Of a stretch of DNA of 64,000 nucleotides, positions 1 through 52,374 are shown piece after piece. The translations under genes and the position numbers were made by a program. The notes under the pieces were generated by a model. The model worked only from the letters and a program-made list of their open reading frames with translations, was not told where the DNA came from and searched no databases. Origin of the DNA: Escherichia coli (lineage in GTDB: Bacteria; Pseudomonadota; Gammaproteobacteria; Enterobacterales; Enterobacteriaceae); NCBI RefSeq assembly GCF_003018115.1, contig NZ_CP027457.1; one strand, given 5' to 3'. Numbering within the stretch: position 1 is the stretch's first letter; each line of letters opens with the position of its first letter.

Positions 1-234
1 CCCGCTTCGTTGGAGCGTTTGCTAAAATCCACATAACCCAGGGTAAATATCTTTGCCAAAAACTCCAAAAATGCTCTAGGAGAAAGAATATTGCTTCTGC
101 TATTCTGCCCCCCGGCAATTCGGGCAAAATCATTCATTCCCACATACCAGGTATCTAAGGCTTCATTTTTTTGTTTAAAATTGTCGGCTAATGTAATGTG
201 TTGAGAATAATTCAAATCTGATATTTTGCTCATG
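1..234 (-). CDS. yjgL: N-terminal part of a large uncharacterised protein; ORF runs off the window start (5' partial window, gene start at 234)
   Basis: Minus-strand ATG at 232-234 opens a stop-free frame to position 1 (MSKISDLNYSQHITLADNFKQKNEALDTWYVGMNDF...); not in the ORF track because no stop lies in the window; name from synteny next to tabA. Confidence 0.55.
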
Positions 235-355
235 ACGAACTCCTTGAGTTAATAAGAACGTCTAAGCATTACAAATTTTACTCACAAAAAAATATCAAAA
301 AACGCTCTTTTCACAAACTCGCCGTAAACCTGGAGTTATTTACGGCGAAAAGTCA

Positions 356-820
<465 letters not shown>

Positions 821-952
821 TTAATTAAAACAACGTTTCATTTCTATCGTTATACGAAAAGATGATCAATTCCGCTAGCCTTAACGCGTGAATTATTGTC
901 TTATCACAACTTATCGGTAGGCGCGTTCCCGCCTTTCGGATCAAGGCCAGCA

Positions 953-1546
953 TCACTCCTTGAGAATAGTTTTTATCGCTTCCCCCGCCAGTGCAGCTGT
1001 TGCACAGAGTTGTTCGAGGGAGTGCCCCTCTCGTGCCTTCGCAGAAAGCCCTGACATCACGGTACTCATAAAATCAGTCACACATTGTGCGCTTTGTGGA
1101 TGCCGCCTGGCGATATAGTCATAAATGGCCGTTTCTGCGGCGTGATAATATTGAACGGCAATATCACGCGCTTGTGGATCATGACTATGAATGCCTTCAA
1201 GAACCATACAGCCAGCGCAGCCGCCGTTTTGGCTATATCTGCGCGCCGCTTCTTTTAATACCTCAGCCAGGCACTCCCCTACCGGACGATCATCACGAAG
1301 AATATCGGCAAGCGGAATAGCTTCCGTACCGACATATTCATTGAGTACACGGCTAAATAACCCAGCCTTATTGCCAAAAGCCGCGTAGAGGCTCGGGGGG
1401 TTAATACCAAGATAATCAGTAACTTCAGCAACACTGACAGCATCGAAACCTTTTTGGTGAAAAAGCACTTTTGCCGCAGAGACTGCCTGCTCAGGAGCGA
1501 AACGTCTGGGACGACCTGGAACGCGAGATTGTTTTTTAGTGACCAT
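953..1546 (-). CDS. bdcR: TetR-family transcriptional regulator BdcR (YjgJ)
   Basis: 197-aa ORF with N-terminal TetR-type HTH (AAKVLFHQKGFDAVSVAEVTDYLGINPPSLYAAFGNKAGLF); divergent from bdcA. Confidence 0.8.
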   Translation of the reverse strand: MVTKKQSRVPGRPRRFAPEQAVSAAKVLFHQKGFDAVSVAEVTDYLGINPPSLYAAFGNKAGLFSRVLNEYVGTEAIPLADILRDDRPVGECLAEVLKEAARRYSQNGGCAGCMVLEGIHSHDPQARDIAVQYYHAAETAIYDYIARRHPQSAQCVTDFMSTVMSGLSAKAREGHSLEQLCATAALAGEAIKTILKE

Positions 1547-1616
1547 TACAAAACTTGTTGACAGAAAGTTAAAACAGTTTTGTAATGCATGTTACATAAT
1601 AAATCAAGGAGTCCTT

Positions 1617-2330
1617 ATGGGCGCTTTTACAGGTAAGACAGTTCTCATCCTCGGTGGTAGCCGTGGAATCGGTGCCGCTATCGTACGTCGTTTCGTCACC
1701 GATGGGGCCAATGTACGATTCACCTATGCGGGGTCGAAAGATGCCGCTGAACGCCTGGCACAAGAGACTGGAGCGACAGCAGTATTCACAGATAGTGCTG
1801 ACAGAGACGCTGTTATTGATGTCGTTCGTAAGAGCGGCGCATTGGATATCCTGGTGGTAAATGCAGGTATTGGCGTCTTTGGCGATGCCCTGGAATTAAA
1901 TGCCGACGATATTGATCGCCTTTTCAAAATCAATATTCATGCTCCTTACCATGCCTCTGTTGAAGCCGCCCGGCAGATGCCCGAAGGCGGGCGCATCTTA
2001 ATCATCGGCTCCGTGAATGGCGATCGTATGCCTGTTGCAGGCATGGCTGCTTATGCCGCCAGTAAATCTGCCCTGCAAGGCATGGCGCGCGGGCTGGCCC
2101 GTGATTTCGGACCGCGTGGGATCACCATCAACGTCGTCCAGCCAGGGCCAATTGATACCGACGCTAATCCCGCCAACGGGCCAATGCGCGATATGTTGCA
2201 TGGTTTTATGGCCATCAAAAGACATGGGCAACCGGAAGAGGTCGCTGGTATGGTCGCATGGTTAGCAGGGCCAGAAGCCAGTTTTGTTACCGGCGCGATG
2301 CATACCATTGATGGCGCGTTTGGCGCATAA
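1617..2330 (+). CDS. bdcA: short-chain dehydrogenase/reductase BdcA (YjgI), c-di-GMP binding
   Basis: ORF track 1539..2330; Rossmann motif GKTVLILGGSRGIGAAI directly after the ATG at 1617 gives 237 aa. Confidence 0.85.
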   Translation: MGAFTGKTVLILGGSRGIGAAIVRRFVTDGANVRFTYAGSKDAAERLAQETGATAVFTDSADRDAVIDVVRKSGALDILVVNAGIGVFGDALELNADDIDRLFKINIHAPYHASVEAARQMPEGGRILIIGSVNGDRMPVAGMAAYAASKSALQGMARGLARDFGPRGITINVVQPGPIDTDANPANGPMRDMLHGFMAIKRHGQPEEVAGMVAWLAGPEASFVTGAMHTIDGAFGA

Positions 2331-2460
2331 CCGACTACGCTCAATTAAGCCCAGCCATTTCCCATGATGTCTGGGTTTTGTTTACTCACGTCGTCCGCTA
2401 AAAGCGGCTCCTGGTAAATATAAATCTTCTGTTCATGTCGTAAATCTTGAGGATAACCAA

Positions 2461-2856
2461 ATGGTAGAAAGAACCGCTGTTTTCCCTGCTGGCCGACATT
2501 CACTGTATGCTGAACATCGTTATTCTGCGGCTATTCGTTCCGGCGATTTGCTGTTTGTTTCCGGGCAAGTAGGAAGTCGAGAGGACGGAACACCAGAACC
2601 CGATTTTCAGCAACAAGTCAGACTGGCCTTTGATAATTTGCATGCGACCCTGGCAGCTGCGGGATGCACTTTTGACGATATCATTGATGTTACGAGCTTT
2701 CATACCGATCCAGAAAAACAATTTGAAGACATCATGACGGTGAAAAATGAAATATTTAGCGCGCCACCTTATCCAACCTGGACGGCGGTGGGCGTTACAT
2801 GGCTGGCAGGCTTTGATTTTGAAATTAAAGTGATAGCGCGCATCCCTGAGCTGTAA
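2461..2856 (+). CDS. yjgH: RidA/YjgF-family (RutC-like) protein YjgH
   Basis: 131-aa ORF, recognised sequence; synteny upstream of pyrL. Confidence 0.8.
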   Translation: MVERTAVFPAGRHSLYAEHRYSAAIRSGDLLFVSGQVGSREDGTPEPDFQQQVRLAFDNLHATLAAAGCTFDDIIDVTSFHTDPEKQFEDIMTVKNEIFSAPPYPTWTAVGVTWLAGFDFEIKVIARIPEL

Positions 2857-3136
2857 GCAATAGTGTTAGCCGTTCGTTTTCACACTCCGCCCTATAAGTC
2901 GGATGAATGGAATAAAATGCATATCTGATTGCGTGAAAGTGAAAAAGAAAAAAGCAGGAAATGTCTGCAATTATTGATACCGAACGACAGTTCCCCTCCA
3001 GAATCACAGTAAATAAAAATGCATATATTTTGACTTTAAATTCAAATAAACCGTTTGCGCTGACAAAATATTGCATCAATTGCTTGCACCGCTTCTGACG
3101 ATGAGTATAATGCCGGACAATTTGACGGGAGGATGT

Positions 3137-3271
3137 ATGGTTCAGTGTGTTCGACATTTTGTCTTACCGCGTCTGAAAAAAGACGCTGGCCTGCCGTTTT
3201 TCTTCCCGTTGATCACCCATTCCCAGCCCCTCAATCGAGGGGCTTTTTTTTGCCCAGGCGTCAGGAGATAA
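3137..3271 (+). CDS. pyrL: pyrBI operon leader peptide
   Basis: 44-aa ORF MVQCVRHFVLPRLKKDAGLPFFFPLITHSQPLNRGAFFCPGVRR ending 4 nt before pyrB and overlapping the attenuator hairpin. Confidence 0.8.
   Translation: MVQCVRHFVLPRLKKDAGLPFFFPLITHSQPLNRGAFFCPGVRR
3226..3252 (+). terminator. pyrBI attenuator (rho-independent terminator within pyrL)
   Basis: GC hairpin GCCCCTCAATCGAGGGGC followed by a run of 8 T, about 25 nt upstream of pyrB. Confidence 0.75.
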
Positions 3272-3274
3272 AAG

Positions 3275-4210
3275 ATGGCTAATCCGCTATATCAGAAACA
3301 TATCATTTCCATAAACGACCTTAGTCGCGATGACCTTAATCTGGTGCTGGCAACAGCGGCAAAACTGAAAGCAAACCCGCAACCAGAGCTGTTGAAGCAC
3401 AAAGTCATTGCCAGCTGCTTCTTCGAAGCCTCTACCCGTACCCGCCTCTCTTTCGAAACTTCCATGCACCGCCTGGGTGCCAGCGTGGTGGGCTTCTCCG
3501 ACAGCGCCAATACATCACTGGGTAAAAAGGGCGAAACGCTGGCCGATACCATTTCGGTTATCAGCACTTACGTCGATGCGATAGTGATGCGTCATCCGCA
3601 GGAAGGTGCGGCGCGCCTGGCCACCGAGTTTTCCGGCAATGTACCGGTACTGAATGCCGGTGATGGCTCCAACCAACATCCGACGCAAACCTTGCTGGAC
3701 TTATTCACTATTCAGGAAACCCAGGGGCGTCTGGACAATCTCCACGTCGCAATGGTTGGTGACCTGAAATATGGCCGCACCGTTCACTCCCTGACTCAGG
3801 CGTTAGCGAAGTTCGACGGCAACCGTTTTTACTTCATCGCGCCGGACGCGCTGGCAATGCCGCAATACATTCTGGATATGCTCGATGAAAAAGGGATCGC
3901 ATGGAGTCTGCACAGCTCTATTGAAGAAGTGATGGCGGAAGTAGACATCCTGTACATGACCCGCGTGCAAAAAGAGCGTCTGGACCCGTCCGAGTACGCC
4001 AACGTGAAAGCGCAGTTTGTTCTTCGCGCCAGCGATCTCCACAACGCCAAAGCCAATATGAAAGTACTGCATCCGCTGCCGCGTGTTGATGAAATTGCGA
4101 CGGATGTTGATAAAACGCCACACGCCTGGTACTTCCAGCAGGCAGGCAACGGGATTTTCGCTCGCCAGGCGTTACTGGCACTGGTTCTGAATCGCGATCT
4201 GGTACTGTAA
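3275..4210 (+). CDS. pyrB: aspartate carbamoyltransferase catalytic subunit
   Basis: 311-aa ORF with STRTR and HPxQ motifs; recognised sequence. Confidence 0.95.
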
Positions 4211-4222
4211 GGGGAAATAGAG

Positions 4223-4684
4223 ATGACACACGATAATAAATTGCAGGTTGAAGCTATTAAACGCGGCACGGTAATTGACCATATCCCCGCCCAGATCGGT
4301 TTTAAGCTGTTGAGTCTGTTCAAGCTGACCGAAACGGATCAGCGCATCACCATCGGTCTGAACTTGCCTTCTGGCGAGATGGGCCGCAAAGATCTGATCA
4401 AAATCGAAAATACCTTTTTGAGTGAAGACCAGGTAGATCAACTGGCATTGTATGCGCCGCAAGCCACGGTTAACCGTATCGACAACTATGAAGTGGTGGG
4501 TAAATCGCGCCCAAGTCTGCCGGAGCGCATCGACAATGTGCTGGTCTGCCCGAACAGCAACTGTATCAGCCATGCCGAACCGGTTTCTTCCAGCTTTGCC
4601 GTGCGAAAACGCGCCAATGACATCGCGCTCAAATGCAAATACTGTGAAAAAGAGTTTTCTCATAATGTGGTGCTGGCCAATTAA
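4223..4684 (+). CDS. pyrI: aspartate carbamoyltransferase regulatory subunit
   Basis: 153-aa ORF with C-terminal Zn-binding cysteines (CPNSNC...CKYC); immediately downstream of pyrB. Confidence 0.95.
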
Positions 4685-4756
4685 TTGCGGTTGGTAATAA
4701 AAGTCTGGCTCCCTATAATGAGCCAGACTTTTTACCGCTGTAATAAAGGAGAAATC

Positions 4757-5143
4757 ATGAGCAAAACTATCGCGACGGAAAATGCACCGGCAGCTATCGG
4801 CCCTTACGTACAGGGCGTTGATCTGGGCAATATGATCATCACCTCCGGTCAGATCCCGGTAAATCCGAAAACGGGCGAAGTACCGGCAGACGTCGCTGCA
4901 CAGGCACGTCAGTCGCTGGATAACGTAAAAGCGATCGTCGAAGCCGCTGGTCTGAAAGTGGGCGACATCGTTAAAACTACCGTGTTTGTAAAAGATCTGA
5001 ACGACTTCGCAACCGTTAATGCTACCTACGAAGCCTTCTTCACCGAACACAACGCCACCTTCCCGGCACGTTCTTGCGTTGAAGTTGCCCGTCTGCCGAA
5101 AGACGTGAAGATTGAGATCGAAGCGATCGCTGTTCGTCGCTAA
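4757..5143 (+). CDS. ridA: enamine/imine deaminase RidA (YjgF)
   Basis: ORF track 4685..5143; true start MSKTIATENAPAAIGPYVQG gives 128 aa. Confidence 0.9.
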   Translation: MSKTIATENAPAAIGPYVQGVDLGNMIITSGQIPVNPKTGEVPADVAAQARQSLDNVKAIVEAAGLKVGDIVKTTVFVKDLNDFATVNATYEAFFTEHNATFPARSCVEVARLPKDVKIEIEAIAVRR

Positions 5144-5200
5144 TCTTGATGGAAATCCGGGCTATCATGCCCGGATTAAGTCTGATGACAAACGCAAAAT

Positions 5201-5292
5201 CGCCTGATGCGCTACGCTTATCAGGCCTACGTGATTCCTGCAATTTATTGAATTTGTAGACCGGATTAGGCTTTTACGCCGCATCCGGCATG
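5201..5292. repeat. REP/BIME cluster (two inverted REP units)
   Basis: GCCTGATGCGCTACGCTTATCAGGCCTAC and CCGGATTAGGC...GCCGCATCCGGCA palindromic units between convergent ridA and mgtA. Confidence 0.7.
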
Positions 5293-5348
5293 AACAAAAC
5301 TCACTTTGTCTGCAATCTGAATCCGGGCCACCATGCCCAGTTTATTCT

Positions 5349-8045
5349 TTACTGCCAGCCGTAACGACGGCTATAGAACCCTTTCACCAACTGGGTTAAT
5401 GTCATATACCCTGCCAGAATCGCAACCAGCCACGGGAAATAGCTTAACGGCAACGCCTGTAATTGCAGATAACTGGCCAGCGGTGAAAACGGCAATGCGA
5501 TCCCGACAATCATCACGATCACGGTCATGATCATTAACGGCCACGATGCACAGCTCTGAATAAACGGCACACGGCGGGTGCGGATCATATGCACAATCAG
5601 CGTTTGCGACAGTAAGCCCACCACAAACCATCCCGACTGGAACAGCGTTTGCGTTTCCGGCGTGTTGGCATGGAATACCCACCACATCAGGCAAAACGTC
5701 AAAATATCGAAGATCGAGCTGATCGGTCCGAAGAAGATCATAAAGCGCCCCAGATCCGCCGGATTCCAACGCTGCGGCTTTTGAATTTGCTCGTCGTCGA
5801 CGTTATCAAACGGGATCGCCACCTGTGACACATCGTACAGCAGGTTCTGAATAAGCAAGTGTAACGGCAACATCGGTAGGAAGGGCAAGAAAGCACTCGC
5901 TACCAGCACGCTGAACACATTACCGAAGTTAGAGCTCGCCGTCATTTTGATGTATTTCAGCATGTTGGCGAAAGTGCGACGTCCCTCAATAACCCCCTCT
6001 TCCAGCACCATCAGGCTTTTTTCCAGCAGGATGATATCAGCCGCTTCACGGGCAATATCTACCGCGCCGTCCACAGAAATGCCGATATCCGCAGCGCGTA
6101 AGGCGGGCGCATCATTAATACCATCGCCCATAAAGCCAACCACATGCCCTTCGCGCTTCAGTAAGGTCACAATGCGTTCTTTATGCATCGGCGTCAGGCG
6201 GGCAAACAGCGTGGTGCGCTGTGCAAGATTTGCCAGTTCGTCGTCAGATAGCGTTTCAATATCACTACCAATGACCACCTCTCCCGCGTCCAGCCCCACT
6301 TCATGGCACACTTTCGCTGCAACTAACTCACTGTCGCCAGTAAGGATTTTTACGGTAATTCCACTCGCTTTTAATGCCTTCAGTGCCGGAGCGGTTGTCT
6401 CTTTTGGCGGATCAAGGAAAGCAATATATCCTTCGAGGATCAGGTCGGATTCATCCGCCCGCTGGTAATCTCCTTCACGCGCTGGCAGGTATTTCGTCGC
6501 CACCGCAACCACGCGCAGCCCCTGACGATTCAGCGTATCAGTAACCCGCTTAATCTTACGCAGCATGATGTCATCGAGCGGCACAATCTCGCCATTGTGA
6601 CGCACCTGCGAACACACATTGAGGATTTCCTGCAATGCACCTTTGCAAACCAGCTGATGGTGCTCGGTATTTTCTGCCACTACCACCGACATCCGGCGAC
6701 GCTCGAAATCAAACGGAATCTCATCGATTTTTTGCCAACGACTGGCCAGCGAGCGCGCTGACTCTTCATCCGTACCTTCGAGCACCGCTGTATCGAGCAG
6801 GTTTTTAAGTCCGGTCTGATAATGACTGTTCAACCACGCGCTATGCAGCACGCGTTCGCTGGTTTTACCGGAGATATCGGTATGATTCTCCAGCACAATT
6901 TTATCCTGTGTCAGGGTGCCGGTTTTATCAGTGCACAGAATATCCATTGCGCCAAAGTTCTGAATGGCATCCAGATGTTTGACGATCACTTTCTGTTTCG
7001 ACAGCTTTACTGCGCCGCGCGCCAGCGTCGAGGTAACAATCATCGGCAACATTTCCGGCGTTAGGCCTACCGCGACCGAAAGCGCAAACAGCGCCGCTTC
7101 CCACCAGTCGCCTTTGGTGTAGCCATTGATTAACAGCACCACCGGTGCCATCACCAGCATAAAGCGAATCAGCAGCATACTGACGCGGCTGATCCCTTGC
7201 TGAAAGGCATTCGGCTCGCTTTCCTGCTCACTAACACGCCCCGCCAGTTGACCAAACCAGGTATTGGCACCTGTAGCAATCACCATTGCTTGTGCCGTGC
7301 CGCTCACCACGGTGGTGCCCATAAAACACAGCGTGTCGCACTCCAGCGGATTGCTGTGCTCCGGCTGGCGAGTGGTAGCGGCTTTTTCCACGGGCAGAGA
7401 CTCACCGGTTAACGACGCCTGAGCGACGAACAGATCCCGCGCCTGCAAGATACGTAAATCTGCCGGGATCATATCTCCCGCCGCCAGTTTTATAATATCG
7501 CCGGGCACCAGCTGGTCGATCGGGATCTCCAGCCAGCCATTTTCGCCTTTGTCGTTAATTACGCGCAGCACCGTCGCGGTATTGCTGACCATCGCTTTCA
7601 GGGCATCTGCCGCTTTAGTGGAACGTGCTTCCTGAATAAAGTTCAGCAACGTAGAAATAGCGACCATTAGCGCGATAACGCCCGCAGCAAATAAATCTTC
7701 CGTGGCGTAAGAAATAGCGCCGAGAATGGTGAGTAAAATATTAAAGGGGTTGCGATAGCAGACCCATAAATGTACCCACCACGGCGACGGTTGTTGTGCG
7801 GGTAATTTATTTTCACCATGTTGTTCGCGGGCAGATTCCACTTCCGCCTGATTTAACCCTTCCGGATGGGTGTCGAACGTTTTCCACAATTCTTCTTCGG
7901 GCATCACCGCCATTTTCAGGCAATGCGCACTTAAGGACGGCGGGACCACCGTATTCACTGTCTGCTGCGCGCCAGGCAATGGATCACGATGAACCAGACG
8001 GGAAGGTAAATGGCGAATGAGCCGGGTAAAAATTTCTTTAAACAT
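5349..8045 (-). CDS. mgtA: Mg2+-importing P-type ATPase
   Basis: 898-aa ORF with P-type ATPase motifs (DKTGTLT, TGDS, GDGINDAPAL). Confidence 0.95.
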   Translation of the reverse strand: MFKEIFTRLIRHLPSRLVHRDPLPGAQQTVNTVVPPSLSAHCLKMAVMPEEELWKTFDTHPEGLNQAEVESAREQHGENKLPAQQPSPWWVHLWVCYRNPFNILLTILGAISYATEDLFAAGVIALMVAISTLLNFIQEARSTKAADALKAMVSNTATVLRVINDKGENGWLEIPIDQLVPGDIIKLAAGDMIPADLRILQARDLFVAQASLTGESLPVEKAATTRQPEHSNPLECDTLCFMGTTVVSGTAQAMVIATGANTWFGQLAGRVSEQESEPNAFQQGISRVSMLLIRFMLVMAPVVLLINGYTKGDWWEAALFALSVAVGLTPEMLPMIVTSTLARGAVKLSKQKVIVKHLDAIQNFGAMDILCTDKTGTLTQDKIVLENHTDISGKTSERVLHSAWLNSHYQTGLKNLLDTAVLEGTDEESARSLASRWQKIDEIPFDFERRRMSVVVAENTEHHQLVCKGALQEILNVCSQVRHNGEIVPLDDIMLRKIKRVTDTLNRQGLRVVAVATKYLPAREGDYQRADESDLILEGYIAFLDPPKETTAPALKALKASGITVKILTGDSELVAAKVCHEVGLDAGEVVIGSDIETLSDDELANLAQRTTLFARLTPMHKERIVTLLKREGHVVGFMGDGINDAPALRAADIGISVDGAVDIAREAADIILLEKSLMVLEEGVIEGRRTFANMLKYIKMTASSNFGNVFSVLVASAFLPFLPMLPLHLLIQNLLYDVSQVAIPFDNVDDEQIQKPQRWNPADLGRFMIFFGPISSIFDILTFCLMWWVFHANTPETQTLFQSGWFVVGLLSQTLIVHMIRTRRVPFIQSCASWPLMIMTVIVMIVGIALPFSPLASYLQLQALPLSYFPWLVAILAGYMTLTQLVKGFYSRRYGWQ

Positions 8046-8185
8046 AAGGAGTCCCTCCGCACTGTCTGAAACAGTACAGAAATGTCTTCAGGCGTGGCGA
8101 AGCCTTACCTGAAGGTAATAAAGCTGAGCAGGGACGTTAAAACGTCACGGCCTTACGCATCCGGTAACGCCGTGAAAAGACGGGC
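8046..8185 (-). promoter_or_regulatory. mgtA 5' leader segment between mgtL and mgtA (Mg2+/proline-responsive attenuation region)
   Basis: Untranslated stretch between the mgtL stop and the mgtA start; assignment from established knowledge of the mgtA leader. Confidence 0.5.
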
Positions 8186-8239
8186 TTACCGGAAAAGTTT
8201 TAATCTCCGTCGAGGGAGAGGCGTGGGATCAGGTTCCAT
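8186..8239 (-). CDS. mgtL: mgtA leader peptide (proline-rich)
   Basis: 17-codon [20 protein letters not shown] about 140 nt upstream of mgtA on the same strand; it is the 3' end of a longer spurious track ORF. Confidence 0.7.
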
Positions 8240-8423
8240 ATAACCTCCGGTAAGTGAAAAAAGCGCCGCAAATAATAAGGAGAATCCAATAATATTCGTA
8301 GCATCTATGGCGATATAATACCTGCTGGCAACTAAACCAACGATAAACCAGACTTTACCCATTGCTGAATGCACGGGTAAAGTTAGGCTCAAATAATTAA
8401 ACAACACGTTACGGGACAACAGG

Positions 8424-9371
8424 ATGCAAAATCGGCTGACCATCAAAGACATCGCGCGCTTAAGCGGCGTGGGGAAATCTACGGTTTCCCGGGTGCTGAA
8501 TAACGAAAGCGGCGTGAGCCAGCGTACGCGCGAGCGTGTTGAAGCAGTGATGAATCAGCATGGATTTTCCCCTTCCCGTTCTGCACGCGCTATGCGTGGG
8601 CAAAGCGATAAAGTGGTCGCCATCATTGTCACCCGTCTGGATTCGTTGTCAGAAAATCTCGCCGTTCAAACCATGCTGCCAGCGTTCTATGAACAAGGTT
8701 ACGATCCAATCATGATGGAAAGTCAGTTTTCCCCGCAATTAGTTGCCGAACATTTGGGGGTGCTGAAACGGCGTAATATCGACGGCGTAGTGCTGTTCGG
8801 TTTTACCGGCATAACAGAAGAAATGTTAGCCCACTGGCAGTCATCGCTGGTTCTGCTGGCGCGTGACGCAAAAGGCTTTGCTTCGGTCTGTTATGACGAC
8901 GAAGGGGCAATCAAGATCCTGATGCAACGGCTGTATGACCAGGGGCATCGTAATATCAGTTATCTCGGCGTGCCGCACAGTGACGTGACGACCGGTAAGC
9001 GACGTCACGAAGCCTACCTGGCGTTCTGCAAAGCGCATAAACTGCATCCCGTTGCCGCTCTGCCAGGGCTTGCTATGAAGCAAGGCTATGAGAACGTGGC
9101 AAAAGTGATTACGCCTGAAACTACTGCGTTACTGTGCGCAACCGACACGCTGGCACTTGGCGCAAGTAAATACCTGCAAGAGCAACGCATCGACACCTTG
9201 CAACTGGCGAGCGTCGGTAATACACCGTTAATGAAATTCCTCCATCCGGAGATCGTCACCGTAGATCCCGGTTACGCCGAAGCTGGACGCCAGGCGGCCT
9301 GCCAGTTGATCGCACAGGTAACCGGGCGCAGCGAACCGCAACAAATCATCATCCCCGCCACCCTGTCCTGA
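8424..9371 (+). CDS. treR: trehalose operon repressor (LacI family)
   Basis: 315-aa ORF with N-terminal LacI-type HTH (TIKDIARLSGVGKSTVSRVLN). Confidence 0.9.
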   Translation: MQNRLTIKDIARLSGVGKSTVSRVLNNESGVSQRTRERVEAVMNQHGFSPSRSARAMRGQSDKVVAIIVTRLDSLSENLAVQTMLPAFYEQGYDPIMMESQFSPQLVAEHLGVLKRRNIDGVVLFGFTGITEEMLAHWQSSLVLLARDAKGFASVCYDDEGAIKILMQRLYDQGHRNISYLGVPHSDVTTGKRRHEAYLAFCKAHKLHPVAALPGLAMKQGYENVAKVITPETTALLCATDTLALGASKYLQEQRIDTLQLASVGNTPLMKFLHPEIVTVDPGYAEAGRQAACQLIAQVTGRSEPQQIIIPATLS

Positions 9372-9410
9372 TCGTTTCCTGAACGATAAATTGTGATCTT
9401 CGCTGCGTTT

Positions 9411-9424
9411 CGGGAACGTTCCCG
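9411..9424. promoter_or_regulatory. perfect palindrome CGGGAACGTTCCCG, candidate TreR operator upstream of treB
   Basis: 14-bp perfect inverted repeat about 65 bp upstream of the treB start; LacI-family operators are palindromic. Confidence 0.4.
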
Positions 9425-9489
9425 TTTTTAAATTTTTCCGCGCAATATATTCTGCAGCCAACCAAAAATGTCATCTGCCATGGGGCTTT

Positions 9490-10911
9490 ATGATGAGCAA
9501 AATAAACCAAACGGATATCGATCGGTTGATTGAACTGGTCGGCGGGCGCGGCAATATTGCGACGGTGAGCCACTGTATTACTCGCCTGCGCTTTGTCCTC
9601 AACCAACCGGCCAATGCCAGACCGAAAGAAATTGAGCAACTCCCCATGGTGAAAGGCTGTTTCACCAATGCCGGGCAATTTCAGGTGGTGATTGGCACCA
9701 ACGTGGGTGATTACTATCAAGCACTGATAGCGTCAACCGGACAGGCGCAGGTTGATAAAGAGCAGGTAAAAAAAGCCGCCCGGCAGAATATGAAATGGCA
9801 TGAGCAGTTGATCTCTCATTTCGCGGAGATCTTCTTCCCGTTGCTGCCCGCGTTGATCAGCGGCGGTTTGATCCTCGGTTTTCGCAATGTGATCGGCGAT
9901 TTGCCCATGAGCAACGGTCAAACGCTGGCGCAAATGTATCCTTCCCTGCAAACGATCTACGATTTTCTGTGGTTGATCGGTGAAGCGATCTTCTTCTACC
10001 TGCCGGTCGGGATTTGCTGGTCAGCGGTGAAAAAAATGGGCGGCACGCCGATCCTTGGTATCGTACTTGGCGTAACGCTGGTTTCTCCACAGCTGATGAA
10101 CGCTTATCTGCTCGGACAGCAGCTGCCGGAAGTGTGGGACTTTGGCATGTTCAGCATCGCCAAAGTGGGCTATCAGGCGCAGGTGATCCCGGCACTATTA
10201 GCCGGGCTGGCGCTGGGCGTTATTGAAACTCGCCTTAAACGCATCGTGCCAGATTACCTCTATCTGGTGGTGGTGCCAGTCTGTTCGCTGATCCTCGCGG
10301 TGTTCCTCGCCCATGCGCTGATTGGTCCGTTTGGTCGCATGATTGGCGATGGCGTTGCCTTTGCGGTACGTCACCTGATGACCGGCAGCTTTGCTCCGAT
10401 TGGCGCGGCATTGTTTGGCTTCCTGTACGCCCCGCTGGTGATCACCGGGGTACACCAGACCACGCTTGCTATTGATTTGCAGATGATTCAAAGCATGGGT
10501 GGTACGCCAGTGTGGCCGCTGATTGCGCTGTCGAATATCGCTCAGGGCTCCGCCGTGATAGGCATTATCATTTCCAGCCGCAAGCACAATGAACGCGAGA
10601 TCTCCGTGCCTGCGGCGATCTCCGCCTGGCTTGGGGTCACTGAGCCTGCAATGTACGGCATCAACCTGAAATATCGCTTCCCGATGCTGTGCGCGATGAT
10701 TGGTTCTGGTCTGGCAGGATTGCTATGCGGCCTGAACGGCGTTATGGCGAATGGCATCGGCGTAGGCGGCCTGCCGGGAATTCTCTCGATTCAACCGAGC
10801 TACTGGCAGGTGTTTGCGCTGGCAATGGCTATCGCCATCATCATCCCGATTGTACTCACCTCGTTTATCTACCAGCGGAAATACCGCCTGGGCACGCTGG
10901 ACATTGTTTAA
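9490..10911 (+). CDS. treB: PTS trehalose-specific EIIBC component
   Basis: 473-aa ORF with N-terminal EIIB cysteine motif (VSHCITRLRF) and a multi-span membrane domain. Confidence 0.95.
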   Translation: MMSKINQTDIDRLIELVGGRGNIATVSHCITRLRFVLNQPANARPKEIEQLPMVKGCFTNAGQFQVVIGTNVGDYYQALIASTGQAQVDKEQVKKAARQNMKWHEQLISHFAEIFFPLLPALISGGLILGFRNVIGDLPMSNGQTLAQMYPSLQTIYDFLWLIGEAIFFYLPVGICWSAVKKMGGTPILGIVLGVTLVSPQLMNAYLLGQQLPEVWDFGMFSIAKVGYQAQVIPALLAGLALGVIETRLKRIVPDYLYLVVVPVCSLILAVFLAHALIGPFGRMIGDGVAFAVRHLMTGSFAPIGAALFGFLYAPLVITGVHQTTLAIDLQMIQSMGGTPVWPLIALSNIAQGSAVIGIIISSRKHNEREISVPAAISAWLGVTEPAMYGINLKYRFPMLCAMIGSGLAGLLCGLNGVMANGIGVGGLPGILSIQPSYWQVFALAMAIAIIIPIVLTSFIYQRKYRLGTLDIV

Positions 10912-10960
10912 TTTTCTTCGGGGCGCAATTGCGCCCCCTCGCATTTGCAGGAATAACGTA

Positions 10961-12616
10961 ATGACTAATCTTCCCCACTGGTGGCAAAACGGCGCTATCT
11001 ACCAGATTTATCCAAAGAGTTTTCAGGACACCACGGGTAGCGGTACCGGCGATTTACGTGGCGTTATACAACGCCTGGACTATCTGCATAAACTGGGCGT
11101 TGATGCCATCTGGCTAACCCCCTTTTATGTCTCTCCCCAGGTCGATAACGGTTACGACGTAGCGAACTATACGGCGATTGATCCCACCTACGGCACGCTG
11201 GACGATTTTGACGAACTGGTGACGCAGGCAAAATCGCGCGGGATTCGTATCATTCTCGATATGGTGTTTAACCATACCTCTACCCAACATGCCTGGTTTC
11301 GCGAGGCGCTGAACAAAGAAAGCCCTTACCGCCAGTTTTATATCTGGCGCGATGGCGAACCAGAAACGCCACCGAACAACTGGCGTTCAAAATTTGGCGG
11401 TAGTGCGTGGCGCTGGCATGCGGAAAGCGAACAGTACTATTTGCATCTCTTTGCACCAGAACAGGCGGATCTCAACTGGGAGAATCCAGCGGTACGCGCA
11501 GAGCTGAAAAAAGTCTGTGAGTTCTGGGCCGATCGTGGGGTCGACGGGTTGCGCCTGGATGTGGTGAATCTGATCTCCAAAGACCCGCGTTTCCCTGAAG
11601 ACCTGGACGGCGACGGGCGTCGCTTCTACACCGACGGGCCACGAGCACACGAGTTTTTGCACGAGATGAACCGCGATGTGTTTACGCCACGCGGGTTAAT
11701 GACCGTAGGTGAAATGTCCTCCACCAGCCTTGAGCATTGCCAGCGATACGCGGCACTGACAGGCAGTGAATTGTCGATGACCTTTAATTTTCATCACCTG
11801 AAGGTCGATTATCCCGGTGGTGAAAAATGGACGCTGGCTAAACCTGACTTTGTGGCGTTGAAAACATTGTTCCGCCACTGGCAACAAGGAATGCACAACG
11901 TGGCATGGAATGCCTTGTTCTGGTGTAACCACGATCAGCCGCGCATTGTTTCTCGCTTTGGTGATGAAGGTGAATACCGCGTGCCTGCGGCAAAAATGCT
12001 GGCGATGGTGCTGCATGGCATGCAGGGAACGCCGTATATCTACCAGGGCGAAGAGATTGGCATGACCAACCCGCATTTCACGCGCATTACTGACTATCGC
12101 GACGTAGAGAGCCTCAATATGTTTGCCGAGCTGCGCAACGATGGTCGTGATGCCGACGAGTTATTGGCAATCCTCGCCAGTAAATCCCGTGACAACAGTC
12201 GCACGCCCATGCAATGGAGCAACGGCGATAATGCCGGGTTTACGGCTGGCGAACCGTGGATTAGCCTGGGCGATAACTATCAGGAAATCAACGTAGAAGC
12301 CGCGCTGACCGATGAGTCCTCGGTGTTTTACACCTACCAAAAGTTAATCGCACTGCGTAAGCAAGAAGCCGTTCTGACATGGGGCAATTACCAGGATCTG
12401 CTGCCAAACAGCCCTGTATTGTGGTGCTATCGCCGTGAATGGAAGGGGCAAACCTTGCTGGTCATTGCCAACCTTAGCCGTGAGATCCAACCCTGGCAGC
12501 CAGAGCAAATGCGCGGCAACTGGCAGCTTGTGATGCATAACTACGAAGAAGCCTCACCACAACCCTGTGCCATGACTTTACGGCCTTTTGAGGCTGTCTG
12601 GTGGTTACATAAGTAA
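10961..12616 (+). CDS. treC: trehalose-6-phosphate hydrolase (GH13)
   Basis: ORF track 10814..12616; true start MTNLPHWWQNGAIYQIYPKSF gives 551 aa. Confidence 0.95.
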   Translation: MTNLPHWWQNGAIYQIYPKSFQDTTGSGTGDLRGVIQRLDYLHKLGVDAIWLTPFYVSPQVDNGYDVANYTAIDPTYGTLDDFDELVTQAKSRGIRIILDMVFNHTSTQHAWFREALNKESPYRQFYIWRDGEPETPPNNWRSKFGGSAWRWHAESEQYYLHLFAPEQADLNWENPAVRAELKKVCEFWADRGVDGLRLDVVNLISKDPRFPEDLDGDGRRFYTDGPRAHEFLHEMNRDVFTPRGLMTVGEMSSTSLEHCQRYAALTGSELSMTFNFHHLKVDYPGGEKWTLAKPDFVALKTLFRHWQQGMHNVAWNALFWCNHDQPRIVSRFGDEGEYRVPAAKMLAMVLHGMQGTPYIYQGEEIGMTNPHFTRITDYRDVESLNMFAELRNDGRDADELLAILASKSRDNSRTPMQWSNGDNAGFTAGEPWISLGDNYQEINVEAALTDESSVFYTYQKLIALRKQEAVLTWGNYQDLLPNSPVLWCYRREWKGQTLLVIANLSREIQPWQPEQMRGNWQLVMHNYEEASPQPCAMTLRPFEAVWWLHK

Positions 12617-12627
12617 ATCTTCCCTAA

Positions 12628-12657
12628 GCCCCGGTAATGCCGGTCATTCCGGGGTTT
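12628..12657 (+). terminator. rho-independent terminator after treC
   Basis: Hairpin CCCCGG...CCGGGG followed by TTTT. Confidence 0.6.
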
Positions 12658-12759
12658 TGCCTGTCAGCATGTTGTTTTTGTTGATTTTTCAACCAGCAAA
12701 TTCATTAAAAAATTTACATAACGCTGTAGCGCCCGTCATCCGTACGCTCTGCTTTTTAC

Positions 12760-12773
12760 TTTGAGCTACATCA
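12760..12773. promoter_or_regulatory. candidate FNR site (TTGAGctacATCAA) upstream of nrdD
   Basis: Matches TTGAT-N4-ATCAA with one mismatch; centre 31 bp from the second candidate site. Confidence 0.5.
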
Positions 12774-12790
12774 AAAAAAGTTCAAACATC

Positions 12791-12804
12791 CTTGATGCAA
12801 AGCA
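12791..12804. promoter_or_regulatory. candidate promoter-proximal FNR half-match (TTGATgcaaAGCAC) upstream of nrdD
   Basis: Strong left half-site only; a TAAAAT -10-like hexamer lies at 12818-12823. Confidence 0.4.
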
Positions 12805-12848
12805 CTATATATAGACTTTAAAATGCGTCCCAACCCAATATGTTGTAT
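12801..12848. promoter_or_regulatory. candidate NrdR boxes overlapping the nrdDG promoter
   Basis: Two AT-rich pseudo-palindromes (CACTATATATAG and CCAATATGTTGTAT) about 32 bp apart; assignment by resemblance to the NrdR box consensus. Confidence 0.3.
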
Positions 12849-13009
12849 TAATCGACTATAATTGCTACTACAGCTCCCCACGAAAAAGGTGCGGCGTTGT
12901 GGATAAGCGGATGGCGATTGCGGAAAGCTCCGGAAAACGAAACGAAAAAACCGGAAAACGCCTTTCCCAATTTCTGTGGATAACCTGTTCTTAAAAATAT
13001 GGAGCGATC

Positions 13010-15148
13010 ATGACACCGCATGTGATGAAACGAGACGGCTGCAAAGTGCCGTTTAAATCAGAGCGCATCAAAGAAGCGATTCTGCGTGCAGCTAAAGCAG
13101 CGGAAGTCGATGATGCCGATTATTGCGCCACTGTTGCCGCGGTTGTCAGCGAGCATATGCAGGGCCGCAACCAGGTGGATATCAACGAGATCCAGACCGC
13201 AGTTGAAAACCAGCTGATGTCGGGTCCATACAAACAACTGGCTCGTGCTTACATCGAGTACCGTCACGATCGCGACATTGAACGTGAAAAACGCGGTCGC
13301 CTGAACCAGGAGATCCGTGGCCTGGTCGAGCAGACCAACGCCTCGTTACTCAACGAAAACGCCAACAAAGACAGCAAGGTGATTCCAACCCAGCGCGACC
13401 TGCTGGCCGGGATCGTGGCTAAACACTATGCACGTCAGCACCTGCTGCCGCGTGACGTGGTGCAGGCACATGAGCGTGGCGATATTCACTATCACGATCT
13501 CGATTACTCGCCGTTCTTCCCGATGTTCAACTGCATGTTGATCGACCTGAAAGGCATGCTGACCCAGGGCTTTAAGATGGGGAACGCCGAGATTGAACCG
13601 CCGAAGTCGATCTCTACGGCAACCGCTGTAACTGCGCAGATTATTGCTCAGGTCGCCAGCCATATTTATGGCGGCACCACCATTAACCGTATCGATGAAG
13701 TGCTGGCACCGTTTGTCACCGCCAGCTACAACAAACATCGCAAGACCGCAGAAGAGTGGAACATCCCGGACGCCGAAGGCTACGCTAACTCTCGTACCAT
13801 TAAAGAGTGCTACGATGCCTTCCAGTCGCTGGAGTACGAAGTAAACACCCTGCACACCGCCAACGGTCAGACGCCGTTTGTAACCTTTGGTTTTGGTCTG
13901 GGCACCAGCTGGGAATCGCGCCTGATTCAGGAATCGATCCTGCGTAACCGTATCGCAGGCCTCGGTAAAAACCGTAAAACTGCGGTGTTCCCGAAACTGG
14001 TGTTTGCGATTCGCGATGGCCTGAACCATAAAAAAGGCGATCCGAACTACGACATCAAACAGCTGGCGCTGGAGTGCGCAAGCAAGCGCATGTATCCGGA
14101 TATCCTGAACTACGATCAGGTAGTGAAAGTCACCGGTTCGTTTAAAACCCCGATGGGCTGCCGCAGCTTCCTCGGCGTGTGGGAAAATGAAAACGGCGAG
14201 CAGATCCACGATGGTCGTAACAACCTCGGCGTGATCAGCCTGAACCTGCCGCGTATTGCGCTGGAAGCAAAAGGCGATGAAGCCACCTTCTGGAAGCTGC
14301 TGGATGAACGTCTGGTGCTGGCACGTAAGGCGCTGATGACCCGTATCGCTCGTCTCGAAGGCGTGAAAGCGCGCGTGGCCCCGATCCTCTATATGGAAGG
14401 TGCTTGTGGCGTGCGTCTCAATGCTGACGATGATGTTTCTGAAATCTTCAAAAACGGTCGTGCGTCTATTTCGCTGGGTTACATCGGCATCCACGAAACC
14501 ATTAACGCGCTGTTCGGCGGCGAGCATGTTTACGACAACGAGCAGCTTCGCGCGAAAGGTATCGCCATTGTTGAACGTCTGCGTCAGGCAGTGGATCAGT
14601 GGAAAGAAGAAACGGGTTATGGTTTCAGTCTCTACAGCACGCCGAGTGAAAACCTGTGCGACCGCTTCTGCCGTCTCGATACTGCTGAGTTTGGCGTGGT
14701 GCCGGGCGTGACCGATAAAGGTTACTACACCAACAGTTTCCACCTCGATGTGGAGAAGAAGGTGAACCCGTACGACAAGATCGACTTTGAAGCGCCTTAC
14801 CCGCCGCTGGCGAACGGTGGTTTCATTTGCTACGGCGAGTATCCAAACATTCAGCACAACCTGAAGGCGCTGGAAGATGTCTGGGATTACAGCTATCAGC
14901 ATGTACCGTATTACGGCACCAATACACCGATTGATGAGTGCTACGAGTGTGGCTTTACCGGTGAGTTCGAGTGCACCAGCAAAGGCTTCACCTGCCCGAA
15001 ATGTGGTAACCATGACGCCTCCCGTGTGTCGGTAACTCGCCGCGTGTGCGGATATTTAGGTAGCCCGGATGCACGTCCGTTTAACGCCGGCAAGCAGGAA
15101 GAAGTTAAGCGCCGCGTTAAACATTTGGGAAATGGGCAGATAGGTTGA
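13010..15148 (+). CDS. nrdD: anaerobic ribonucleoside-triphosphate reductase
   Basis: 712-aa ORF with N-terminal ATP-cone and C-terminal Zn-ribbon/glycyl-radical region (CYECGF...CPKCG). Confidence 0.95.
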   Translation: MTPHVMKRDGCKVPFKSERIKEAILRAAKAAEVDDADYCATVAAVVSEHMQGRNQVDINEIQTAVENQLMSGPYKQLARAYIEYRHDRDIEREKRGRLNQEIRGLVEQTNASLLNENANKDSKVIPTQRDLLAGIVAKHYARQHLLPRDVVQAHERGDIHYHDLDYSPFFPMFNCMLIDLKGMLTQGFKMGNAEIEPPKSISTATAVTAQIIAQVASHIYGGTTINRIDEVLAPFVTASYNKHRKTAEEWNIPDAEGYANSRTIKECYDAFQSLEYEVNTLHTANGQTPFVTFGFGLGTSWESRLIQESILRNRIAGLGKNRKTAVFPKLVFAIRDGLNHKKGDPNYDIKQLALECASKRMYPDILNYDQVVKVTGSFKTPMGCRSFLGVWENENGEQIHDGRNNLGVISLNLPRIALEAKGDEATFWKLLDERLVLARKALMTRIARLEGVKARVAPILYMEGACGVRLNADDDVSEIFKNGRASISLGYIGIHETINALFGGEHVYDNEQLRAKGIAIVERLRQAVDQWKEETGYGFSLYSTPSENLCDRFCRLDTAEFGVVPGVTDKGYYTNSFHLDVEKKVNPYDKIDFEAPYPPLANGGFICYGEYPNIQHNLKALEDVWDYSYQHVPYYGTNTPIDECYECGFTGEFECTSKGFTCPKCGNHDASRVSVTRRVCGYLGSPDARPFNAGKQEEVKRRVKHLGNGQIG

Positions 15149-15305: not shown

Positions 15306-15770
15306 ATGAATTATCATCAGTACTATCCTGTCGACATCGTCAACGGCCCCGGCACTCGCTGCACCCTGTTTGTCTCCGGGTGTGTTCATGAATGCCCCGG
15401 TTGCTATAACAAAAGCACATGGCGGGTAAATTCCGGTCAGCCATTTACCAAAGCAATGGAAGACCAGATCATTAACGATCTGAATGACACTCGTATCAAA
15501 CGCCAGGGGATTTCCCTCTCCGGCGGCGATCCGCTGCATCCGCAAAACGTGCCGGATATTCTGAAACTGGTACAACGCATCCGCGCCGAGTGTCCGGGTA
15601 AAGACATCTGGGTGTGGACAGGCTATAAACTCGACGAACTCAACGCTGCGCAAATGCAGGTTGTTGATTTGATTAACGTGCTGGTCGACGGCAAATTTGT
15701 GCAGGATTTAAAAGACCCTTCCCTGATCTGGCGCGGCAGCAGCAATCAGGTGGTGCATCATTTGCGATGA
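15306..15770 (+). CDS. nrdG: anaerobic ribonucleotide reductase activating protein (radical SAM)
   Basis: 154-aa ORF with cysteine cluster CVHECPGCYN; downstream of nrdD. Confidence 0.9.
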   Translation: MNYHQYYPVDIVNGPGTRCTLFVSGCVHECPGCYNKSTWRVNSGQPFTKAMEDQIINDLNDTRIKRQGISLSGGDPLHPQNVPDILKLVQRIRAECPGKDIWVWTGYKLDELNAAQMQVVDLINVLVDGKFVQDLKDPSLIWRGSSNQVVHHLR

Positions 15771-51790: not shown

Positions 51791-52098
51791 TTATTCAGCC
51801 TCCTGTCTGGGTCAGCCGAATCCCGGGGAGGCAAGGAACGTGTTAAAGGTCGGCTGAAAAATGACGCGTTATAGTACTGACATACCCCGCTAAACTCAAG
51901 GCCAGCCGACAAATAAATCTCATCTTTCACCAAAGTGGACTAACACGCTGATTTGAAGTTCATCACACTTCATCATGGTGTTTTTTTGAACAACTGCATC
52001 AGAAATGGTCACCATCAACTTCCTTATCATTGATTAAAATTAAATCAGAAGATCATCACAGAGGAGAGCACACAAAGTCAGCCGTCGAGGAGGTATCT

Positions 52099-52374
52099 AT
52101 GTTCAGTCGTGTTTTAGCCCTTCTGGCTGTGCTTTTACTAAGTGCAAATACATGGGCAGCCATTGAAATTAATAACCACCAGGCCAGAAATATGGACGAT
52201 GTGCAAAGCTTAGGCGTGATTTATATCAATCATAATTTCGCCACTGAAAGCGAAGCACGTCAGGCATTAAATGAAGAAACAGATGCGCAAGGCGCAACGT
52301 ACTACCACGTAATTCTGATGCGGGAACCGGGGAGTAACGGCAATATGCACGCCAGCGCGGATATTTATCGCTAG
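52099..52374 (+). CDS. yjfY: DUF1471 (YdgH/BhsA/McbA-family) periplasmic protein YjfY
   Basis: ORF track 52030..52374; start MFSRVLALLAVLLLSANTWA gives 91 aa with a signal peptide. Confidence 0.8.
   Translation: MFSRVLALLAVLLLSANTWAAIEINNHQARNMDDVQSLGVIYINHNFATESEARQALNEETDAQGATYYHVILMREPGSNGNMHASADIYR

Follow-up and report, generated by a model that had tools for sequence, protein, structure and literature searches.

FNR sites, NrdR boxes and DnaA boxes of the nrdDG promoter in the treC–nrdD intergenic region of Escherichia coli

The DNA upstream of nrdD in the stretch of E. coli sequence analysed here (64,000 nucleotides in full, hereafter the window) is, with a probability of about 0.93, the characterized sigma-70 promoter of nrdDG, which is activated by FNR and repressed by NrdR, with DnaA as a probable third input. 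Every element of this promoter has already been described for E. coli, and the observation made in an earlier note on this DNA, in which the region was read as an nrdDG control region with FNR-like sites and NrdR-like boxes, is real, correctly interpreted and already known. The K-12 nrdDG promoter was described by Boston & Atlung 2003, Roca et al. 2008 and Torrents et al. 2007 and, more recently, by Illava et al. 2023 (PMC10425943) and Rozman Grinberg et al. 2025 (PMC12176259). The present analysis confirms these elements, gives their exact coordinates in the window and compares them among 80 species.

The locus is the E. coli treC–nrdD intergenic region, in which the annotated gene order is treB-treC-nrdD-nrdG-cybC. 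Among 5426 complete E. coli genomes, 5425 contain a match to the segment 12600–13050, with treC and nrdD as its neighbours in every case. The genes and the features at the end of treC are as follows:

10961–12616, plus strand: treC (alpha,alpha-phosphotrehalase), the upstream gene, from the RefSeq annotation of an identical locus and the ORF table
12614–12616, plus strand: treC stop codon TAA, checked in the sequence
12629–12658, plus strand: terminator-like hairpin 3′ of treC, CCCCGG...CCGGGG followed by TTTT, read from the sequence and putative in function
13010–15148, plus strand: nrdD, anaerobic ribonucleoside-triphosphate reductase, from the ORF table and annotation
15306–15770, plus strand: nrdG, the NrdD-activating enzyme, from the ORF table and annotation

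The hairpin 3′ of treC was not called by a simple terminator scan. For comparison with published data, window position p was converted to NC_000913.3 coordinate 4462660 + (13010 − p), and U00096.2 coordinates were taken as 1977 lower than those of NC_000913.3, an offset that was checked on the published position of FNR site 2. Relative to K-12 MG1655, the 420 bp upstream of nrdD contain six SNPs (12610, 12660, 12668, 12721, 12781 and 12929), none of which falls in a recognized site, and all of the FNR, NrdR, −10 and DnaA elements are identical to those of the K-12 nrdDG promoter, which occupies the same locus. Position 12781, which is T here and C in K-12, lies between the FNR sites and is the sole K-12 difference inside the FNR/NrdR module.

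Two FNR sites, neither of which is assigned to a strand, are separated by a conserved spacer:

12761–12774: FNR site 2 (published −64.5), TTGAGCTACATCAA, the stronger of the two and essential according to published work
12775–12791: inter-site spacer carrying CAAACAT and an A-tract, both conserved, from the conservation profile and K-12 comparison
12792–12805: FNR site 1 (published −33.5), TTGATGCAAAGCAC, a weak auxiliary site over the −35 region

Both motifs had been recognized in the earlier note, where their coordinates were set 1 bp too low (12760–12773 and 12791–12804), and the spacing given there is exact, since the dyad centres at 12767.5 and 12798.5 are 31 bp apart. Site 2 departs from the consensus by one mismatch and site 1 by two. 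Matches to TTGATNNNNATCAA with at most two mismatches number 51 in the 64-kb window, against 34 expected, and counting by consensus only is weak evidence that is too permissive, which is why a matrix derived from ChIP-supported sites was used instead. This matrix was built from the 62 ChIP-seq-supported sites of Myers 2013 Table S6, with nrdD left out, and its scores were compared with those from 300 dinucleotide shuffles of the window. FNR site 2, a 14-bp inverted repeat of the form TTGAT-N4-ATCAA above the matrix threshold, scores 17.85 bits and ranks first among 63,987 positions, with 0.06 equal-or-better matches expected per shuffle. For FNR site 1 the score is 10.74 bits, the tenth highest in the window, and 4.7 equal-or-better matches are expected per shuffle; on its own this score is at background level, and it is lower than that of the weakest training site of the matrix (11.99 bits). 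A pair of such quality at a distance of 31 bp was encountered in 0 of 300 shuffles. The matrix scan that had been proposed as a check therefore bears out site 2 and the pair, and leaves site 1 taken alone at background.

Two further observations concern other FNR-like sequences in the window. The palindrome GTTGAttttTCAAC (12680–12693, upstream of site 2) resembles FNR half-sites and was dismissed as a candidate for a third site, as the spacing of its half-sites is 2 bp short. Ranks 2 and 3 of the FNR matrix fall at 52030–52043 and 52216–52229, upstream of and inside yjfY, and both of these sites have been listed as predicted ‘silent’ FNR sites that have no ChIP-seq peak and overlap H-NS and Fis enrichment (Myers 2013).

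The binding of FNR and of NrdR to these exact sequences, the occupancy of the locus by FNR and DnaA in vivo and the FNR dependence of expression have all been shown in the literature. In PMC10425943, which cites Roca 2008, FNR sites 1 and 2 are placed at −33.5 and −64.5, respectively, the positions for which the earlier note had expected the observed spacing; site 2 is reported to be bound more tightly and to be necessary and sufficient, while site 1 is reported to raise expression only on condition that FNR occupies site 2. A 54-bp nrdDG probe was found by SEC-SAXS to be occupied by two wild-type [4Fe-4S] FNR dimers (PMC10425943), and this probe differs from the window sequence 12757–12810 at one position between the sites, 12781, which is T in the window and C in the probe. 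An FNR ChIP-seq summit reported at 4460925 (U00096.2; Myers 2013) maps to the centre of site 2, for which Table S6 of the same study gives a PatSer ln(p) of −14.45, well beyond the cut-off of −10.75. As a reservation, the operon list of that study records FNR activation of nrdD in nitrate or nitrite media. The FNR dependence of nrdDG expression is credited to Boston & Atlung 2003 and Roca 2008. The anaerobic activation by FNR that had been suggested from the sequence is thus upheld by the ChIP-seq summit on site 2 and by the near identity of the published probe.

The core promoter elements are positioned relative to the FNR sites as follows:

12796–12801, plus strand: best −35 candidate, TGCAAA, a 3/6 match
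12819–12824, plus strand: −10 hexamer TAAAAT (−13 to −8), from the sequence, a 5/6 match
12832, plus strand: transcription start, +1 (an A), deduced from the published −33.5 and −64.5, which gives a leader of 178 nt

The assignment of +1 to 12832, and with it that of TAAAAT to −13 to −8, follows from the position of site 1 at −33.5, which is known at second hand; the hexamer lies at a distance compatible with this start. The TAAAAT element had been noticed earlier and exists, at 12819–12824 and not at 12818–12823. No plus-strand promoter was called in the region by a consensus promoter scan, and this result, together with the weak −35 element, fits a promoter of the activator-dependent type. 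A full-text literature search for the start coordinate returned nothing relevant, and the start-site supplement of Ettwiller 2016 contains no entry for it.

Two NrdR boxes, likewise not assigned to a strand, flank the −10 element:

12802–12817: NrdR box 1, GCACTATATATAGACT, rank 1 in the NrdR matrix scan, with a core at least 95% conserved
12833–12848: NrdR box 2, ACCCAATATGTTGTAT (+2 to +17), rank 2 in the NrdR matrix scan, conserved

The two AT-rich pseudo-palindromes that had been compared with NrdR boxes are indeed present at these positions; they were described as overlapping the promoter, and they do not overlap the −10 hexamer, box 2 beginning at +2. With a linker of 15 bp and a centre-to-centre distance of 31 bp, nrdDG possesses the two 16-bp palindromes with the core CwAtATaTwG and centres 31–32 bp apart that define an NrdR operator. 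When a matrix built solely from the nrdAB and nrdHIEF boxes of published probes was run over the window, the two highest scores among about 64,000 positions, 14.18 and 13.62 bits, were those of the nrdDG boxes, and the sum for the pair (27.8) lies far above the maximum over 300 shuffles (18.6), as would be expected of the resemblance that had been noted. NrdR binds a 57-bp nrdDG probe with a Kd of 160 ± 37 nM in the presence of ATP-dATP and of 152 ± 42 nM with ADP-dATP, and the inter-box distance in nrdDG is given as 15 bp (PMC12176259). This probe and the window sequence 12797–12853 are identical at 57 of 57 positions, and the earlier suggestion of NrdR control is thereby supported at the level of binding. 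The nrdHIEF and nrdAB operators share with nrdDG the two 16-bp palindromic boxes and the 15-bp linker, and all three are bound by NrdR (ATP-dATP or ADP-dATP) with a Kd of about 100–190 nM (PMC12176259). The operators differ in their partners, since NrdR box 1 overlaps an FNR site at nrdDG, whereas the partners at nrdHIEF and nrdAB are Fur and IscR, or DnaA and H-NS.

The arrangement was compared among 80 Enterobacteriaceae loci, which were obtained by scanning species-representative genomes with the N-terminus of NrdD; the 300 nt upstream of nrdD were aligned, the loci were anchored on the NrdR pair and the features were counted at the E. coli offsets. All 80 species have the NrdR pair, at a distance of 31 bp in 72 and of 32 bp in 8, and the remaining features were counted as follows:

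FNR site 2 with at most two mismatches: 66 of 80 species
FNR site 2 with at most three mismatches: 71 of 80 species
FNR site 1 with at most two mismatches: 69 of 80 species
TAAAAT or TAGAAT at the −10 position: 75 of 80 species
Two perfect same-strand DnaA boxes: 69 of 80 species

Conservation peaks on the FNR half-sites, the NrdR cores, the −10 hexamer, two TGTGGATAA motifs and the Shine–Dalgarno sequence, and most of the leader besides these is variable. The half-sites TTG and ATCAA of FNR site 2 are at least 95% conserved. In a few taxa (L026, L071, L074, Edwardsiella L079, L081), a site-2-like element, about 35–37 bp upstream of the core of NrdR box 1, is the only FNR element that is kept, which agrees with the role of site 2 as the essential element. 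The comparison shows site 2 to be the most deeply conserved FNR element and the layout as a whole to be conserved in Enterobacteriaceae.

These results also bear on the reading that the motifs are no more than chance matches to consensus in an AT-rich intergenic region. Such a reading is favoured by the frequency of FNR matches at the level of the consensus in the window and by the background score of site 1 by itself. There is, on the other side, the absence of a comparable FNR pair from all shuffles, the first rank of site 2, an NrdR pair far above every shuffle, a layout maintained across 80 species, and direct published binding and ChIP evidence. A chance origin is refuted by the shuffle, conservation, binding and ChIP results taken together, and its probability is close to nil.

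A perfect TATAAT is found at 12857–12862, 25 nt downstream of the inferred start, without a usable −35 element. A start elsewhere, e.g. near 12869 from this hexamer, would shift the FNR sites to about −70.5 and −101.5 and would leave the −35 and spacer region covered by NrdR box 2. The distance of a site near −71 is of the class I type, and the key positions of the perfect TATAAT (T57, A58, A61 and T62) are 80–100% conserved. Such a start is nevertheless very improbable, as the published start gives −33.5 and −64.5 (PMC10425943, citing Roca 2008), TAAAAT at 12819–12824, in its two variants, is the more conserved hexamer, the sequence at the 17-bp position upstream of 12857 (CCCAAT) is unusable as a −35 element, and the consensus scan, which called no plus-strand promoter, gives this start no call. 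The start at about 12832 is therefore retained here.

How FNR contacts RNA polymerase from −64.5 and −33.5 was raised as a question already in PMC10425943, where the geometry of FNR activation at nrdDG is called ‘a remaining mystery’. At most FNR-activated promoters the site lies at −41.5 ± 4 (Myers 2013), in contrast to the promoter-proximal site of nrdDG at −33.5. The tandem-FNR promoters of yfiD, ompW and cydA (Myers 2013 Table S6) likewise carry two FNR sites upstream of one promoter; their sites are separated by 53, 45 and 52 bp, respectively, compared with 31 bp at nrdDG. The conserved A-tract and CAAACAT at 12776–12789 (about −56 to −43) might serve as a contact for the alpha-CTD of RNA polymerase.

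It has to be considered whether site 2 is the only working FNR activator site, with site 1 being conserved through its overlap with the −35 element and NrdR box 1, in which case FNR at site 1 would contribute little in vivo or would act only by displacing NrdR. This possibility is favoured by the background matrix score of site 1, by the non-canonical position −33.5, by the presence of just site 2 above the threshold in Myers 2013 Table S6 and by the taxa in which only a site-2-like element persists. It is also favoured by the sequence of site 1 in Escherichia, which has G at 12802 (site 1 position 11, AGCAC); T at this position (ATCAC) is shared by 56 of 80 species, and most genera have a better site 1 than Escherichia. 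In three Escherichia lineages (L002–L004), TTAAT in place of TTGAT (12794) weakens the site further. These substitutions suggest that the proximal FNR site may have been weakened in a lineage-specific manner in Escherichia. The left half-site TTGATG, which lies outside NrdR box 1, is still at least 90% conserved, however, and site 1 takes the form TTGATGCAAATCAC, with one mismatch and at the exact offset, in 56 of 80 species; a promoter activated through site 2 only is accordingly considered unlikely. The preferred reading remains that both FNR sites take part, site 1 as the auxiliary one.

Given the overlap of 4 bp between FNR site 1 and NrdR box 1 and the distance of 11 bp from one centre to the other, NrdR and FNR probably compete at this position, and competition of this kind has already been proposed for Salmonella (PMC2892513). 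The four dyad centres of the module (12767.5, 12798.5, 12809.5 and 12840.5) are separated by 31, 11 and 31 bp, i.e. by close to whole helical turns. A further proposal is that the −33.5 site constitutes one half of a composite FNR/NrdR operator, in which FNR would act mainly by excluding NrdR and which would have been retuned in Escherichia through the T-to-G change at 12802; the two elements have CAC at 12803–12805 in common, and their dyad centres are one helical turn apart. This proposal is doubtful, if somewhat less so than a promoter with site 2 as its sole activator site, and if it were true, its novelty would be limited to the direction of the effect, anti-repression, and to the lineage-specific tuning.

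The 178-nt leader of nrdD contains the following DnaA boxes:

12898–12906, minus strand: perfect DnaA box TTATCCACA
12975–12994, minus strand: double DnaA box, consisting of a perfect TTATCCACA (12975–12983) and a weaker TTAAGAACA (12986–12994)

The two perfect boxes, which are 77 bp apart, are the only ones in the 64-kb window. In a 2024 DnaA ChIP-seq study (PMC11317965), the nrdD double box is given as ‘tTTAAGAACAggTTATCCACAg’ / TTAAGAACAggTTATCCACA, and the peak at nrdD is located at 4462739, which maps to about 12931. Closely spaced TTATCCACA boxes under a ChIP peak, as expected of a DnaA-bound locus, are thus found in the nrdD leader. Closely spaced boxes and a DnaA ChIP-seq peak are also features of the DnaA-bound nrdA and purH promoters; unlike these, nrdD has its boxes within the transcribed leader, downstream of the start. 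Outside the DnaA boxes the leader is poorly conserved among the aligned loci, its predicted fold is only marginally better than those of shuffled sequences (z = −2.18), and a search for RNA families over 12000–13600 gave no Rfam match at E ≤ 1. A leader about 100 bp shorter and devoid of perfect DnaA boxes was observed in Pseudescherichia vulneris and relatives (L068, L069 and L073), which retain both the FNR pair and the NrdR pair.

The best-supported account of the elements described above is the published one, in which transcription, on the deduced coordinate, starts at about 12832 from a promoter with a weak −35 region and the −10 hexamer TAAAAT. When oxygen is absent, dimeric [4Fe-4S] FNR binds the strong site 2 at −64.5, which is reported to suffice and to be needed for activation, while FNR on the weak site 1 at −33.5 adds to activation only once site 2 is occupied, and the dimers at both sites recruit RNA polymerase. 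Repression by NrdR is exerted through the pair of boxes, between which lie the −10 element and the start, and because of this placement, bound NrdR is expected to block the polymerase. DnaA on the conserved boxes of the leader would provide the third input, the direction of whose effect is a matter of inference.

The nrdDG promoter in this manner joins the oxygen status sensed by FNR, the dNTP and energy status sensed by NrdR and the replication-initiator status represented by DnaA, so that one promoter combines all three in the control of the anaerobic supply of DNA precursors.
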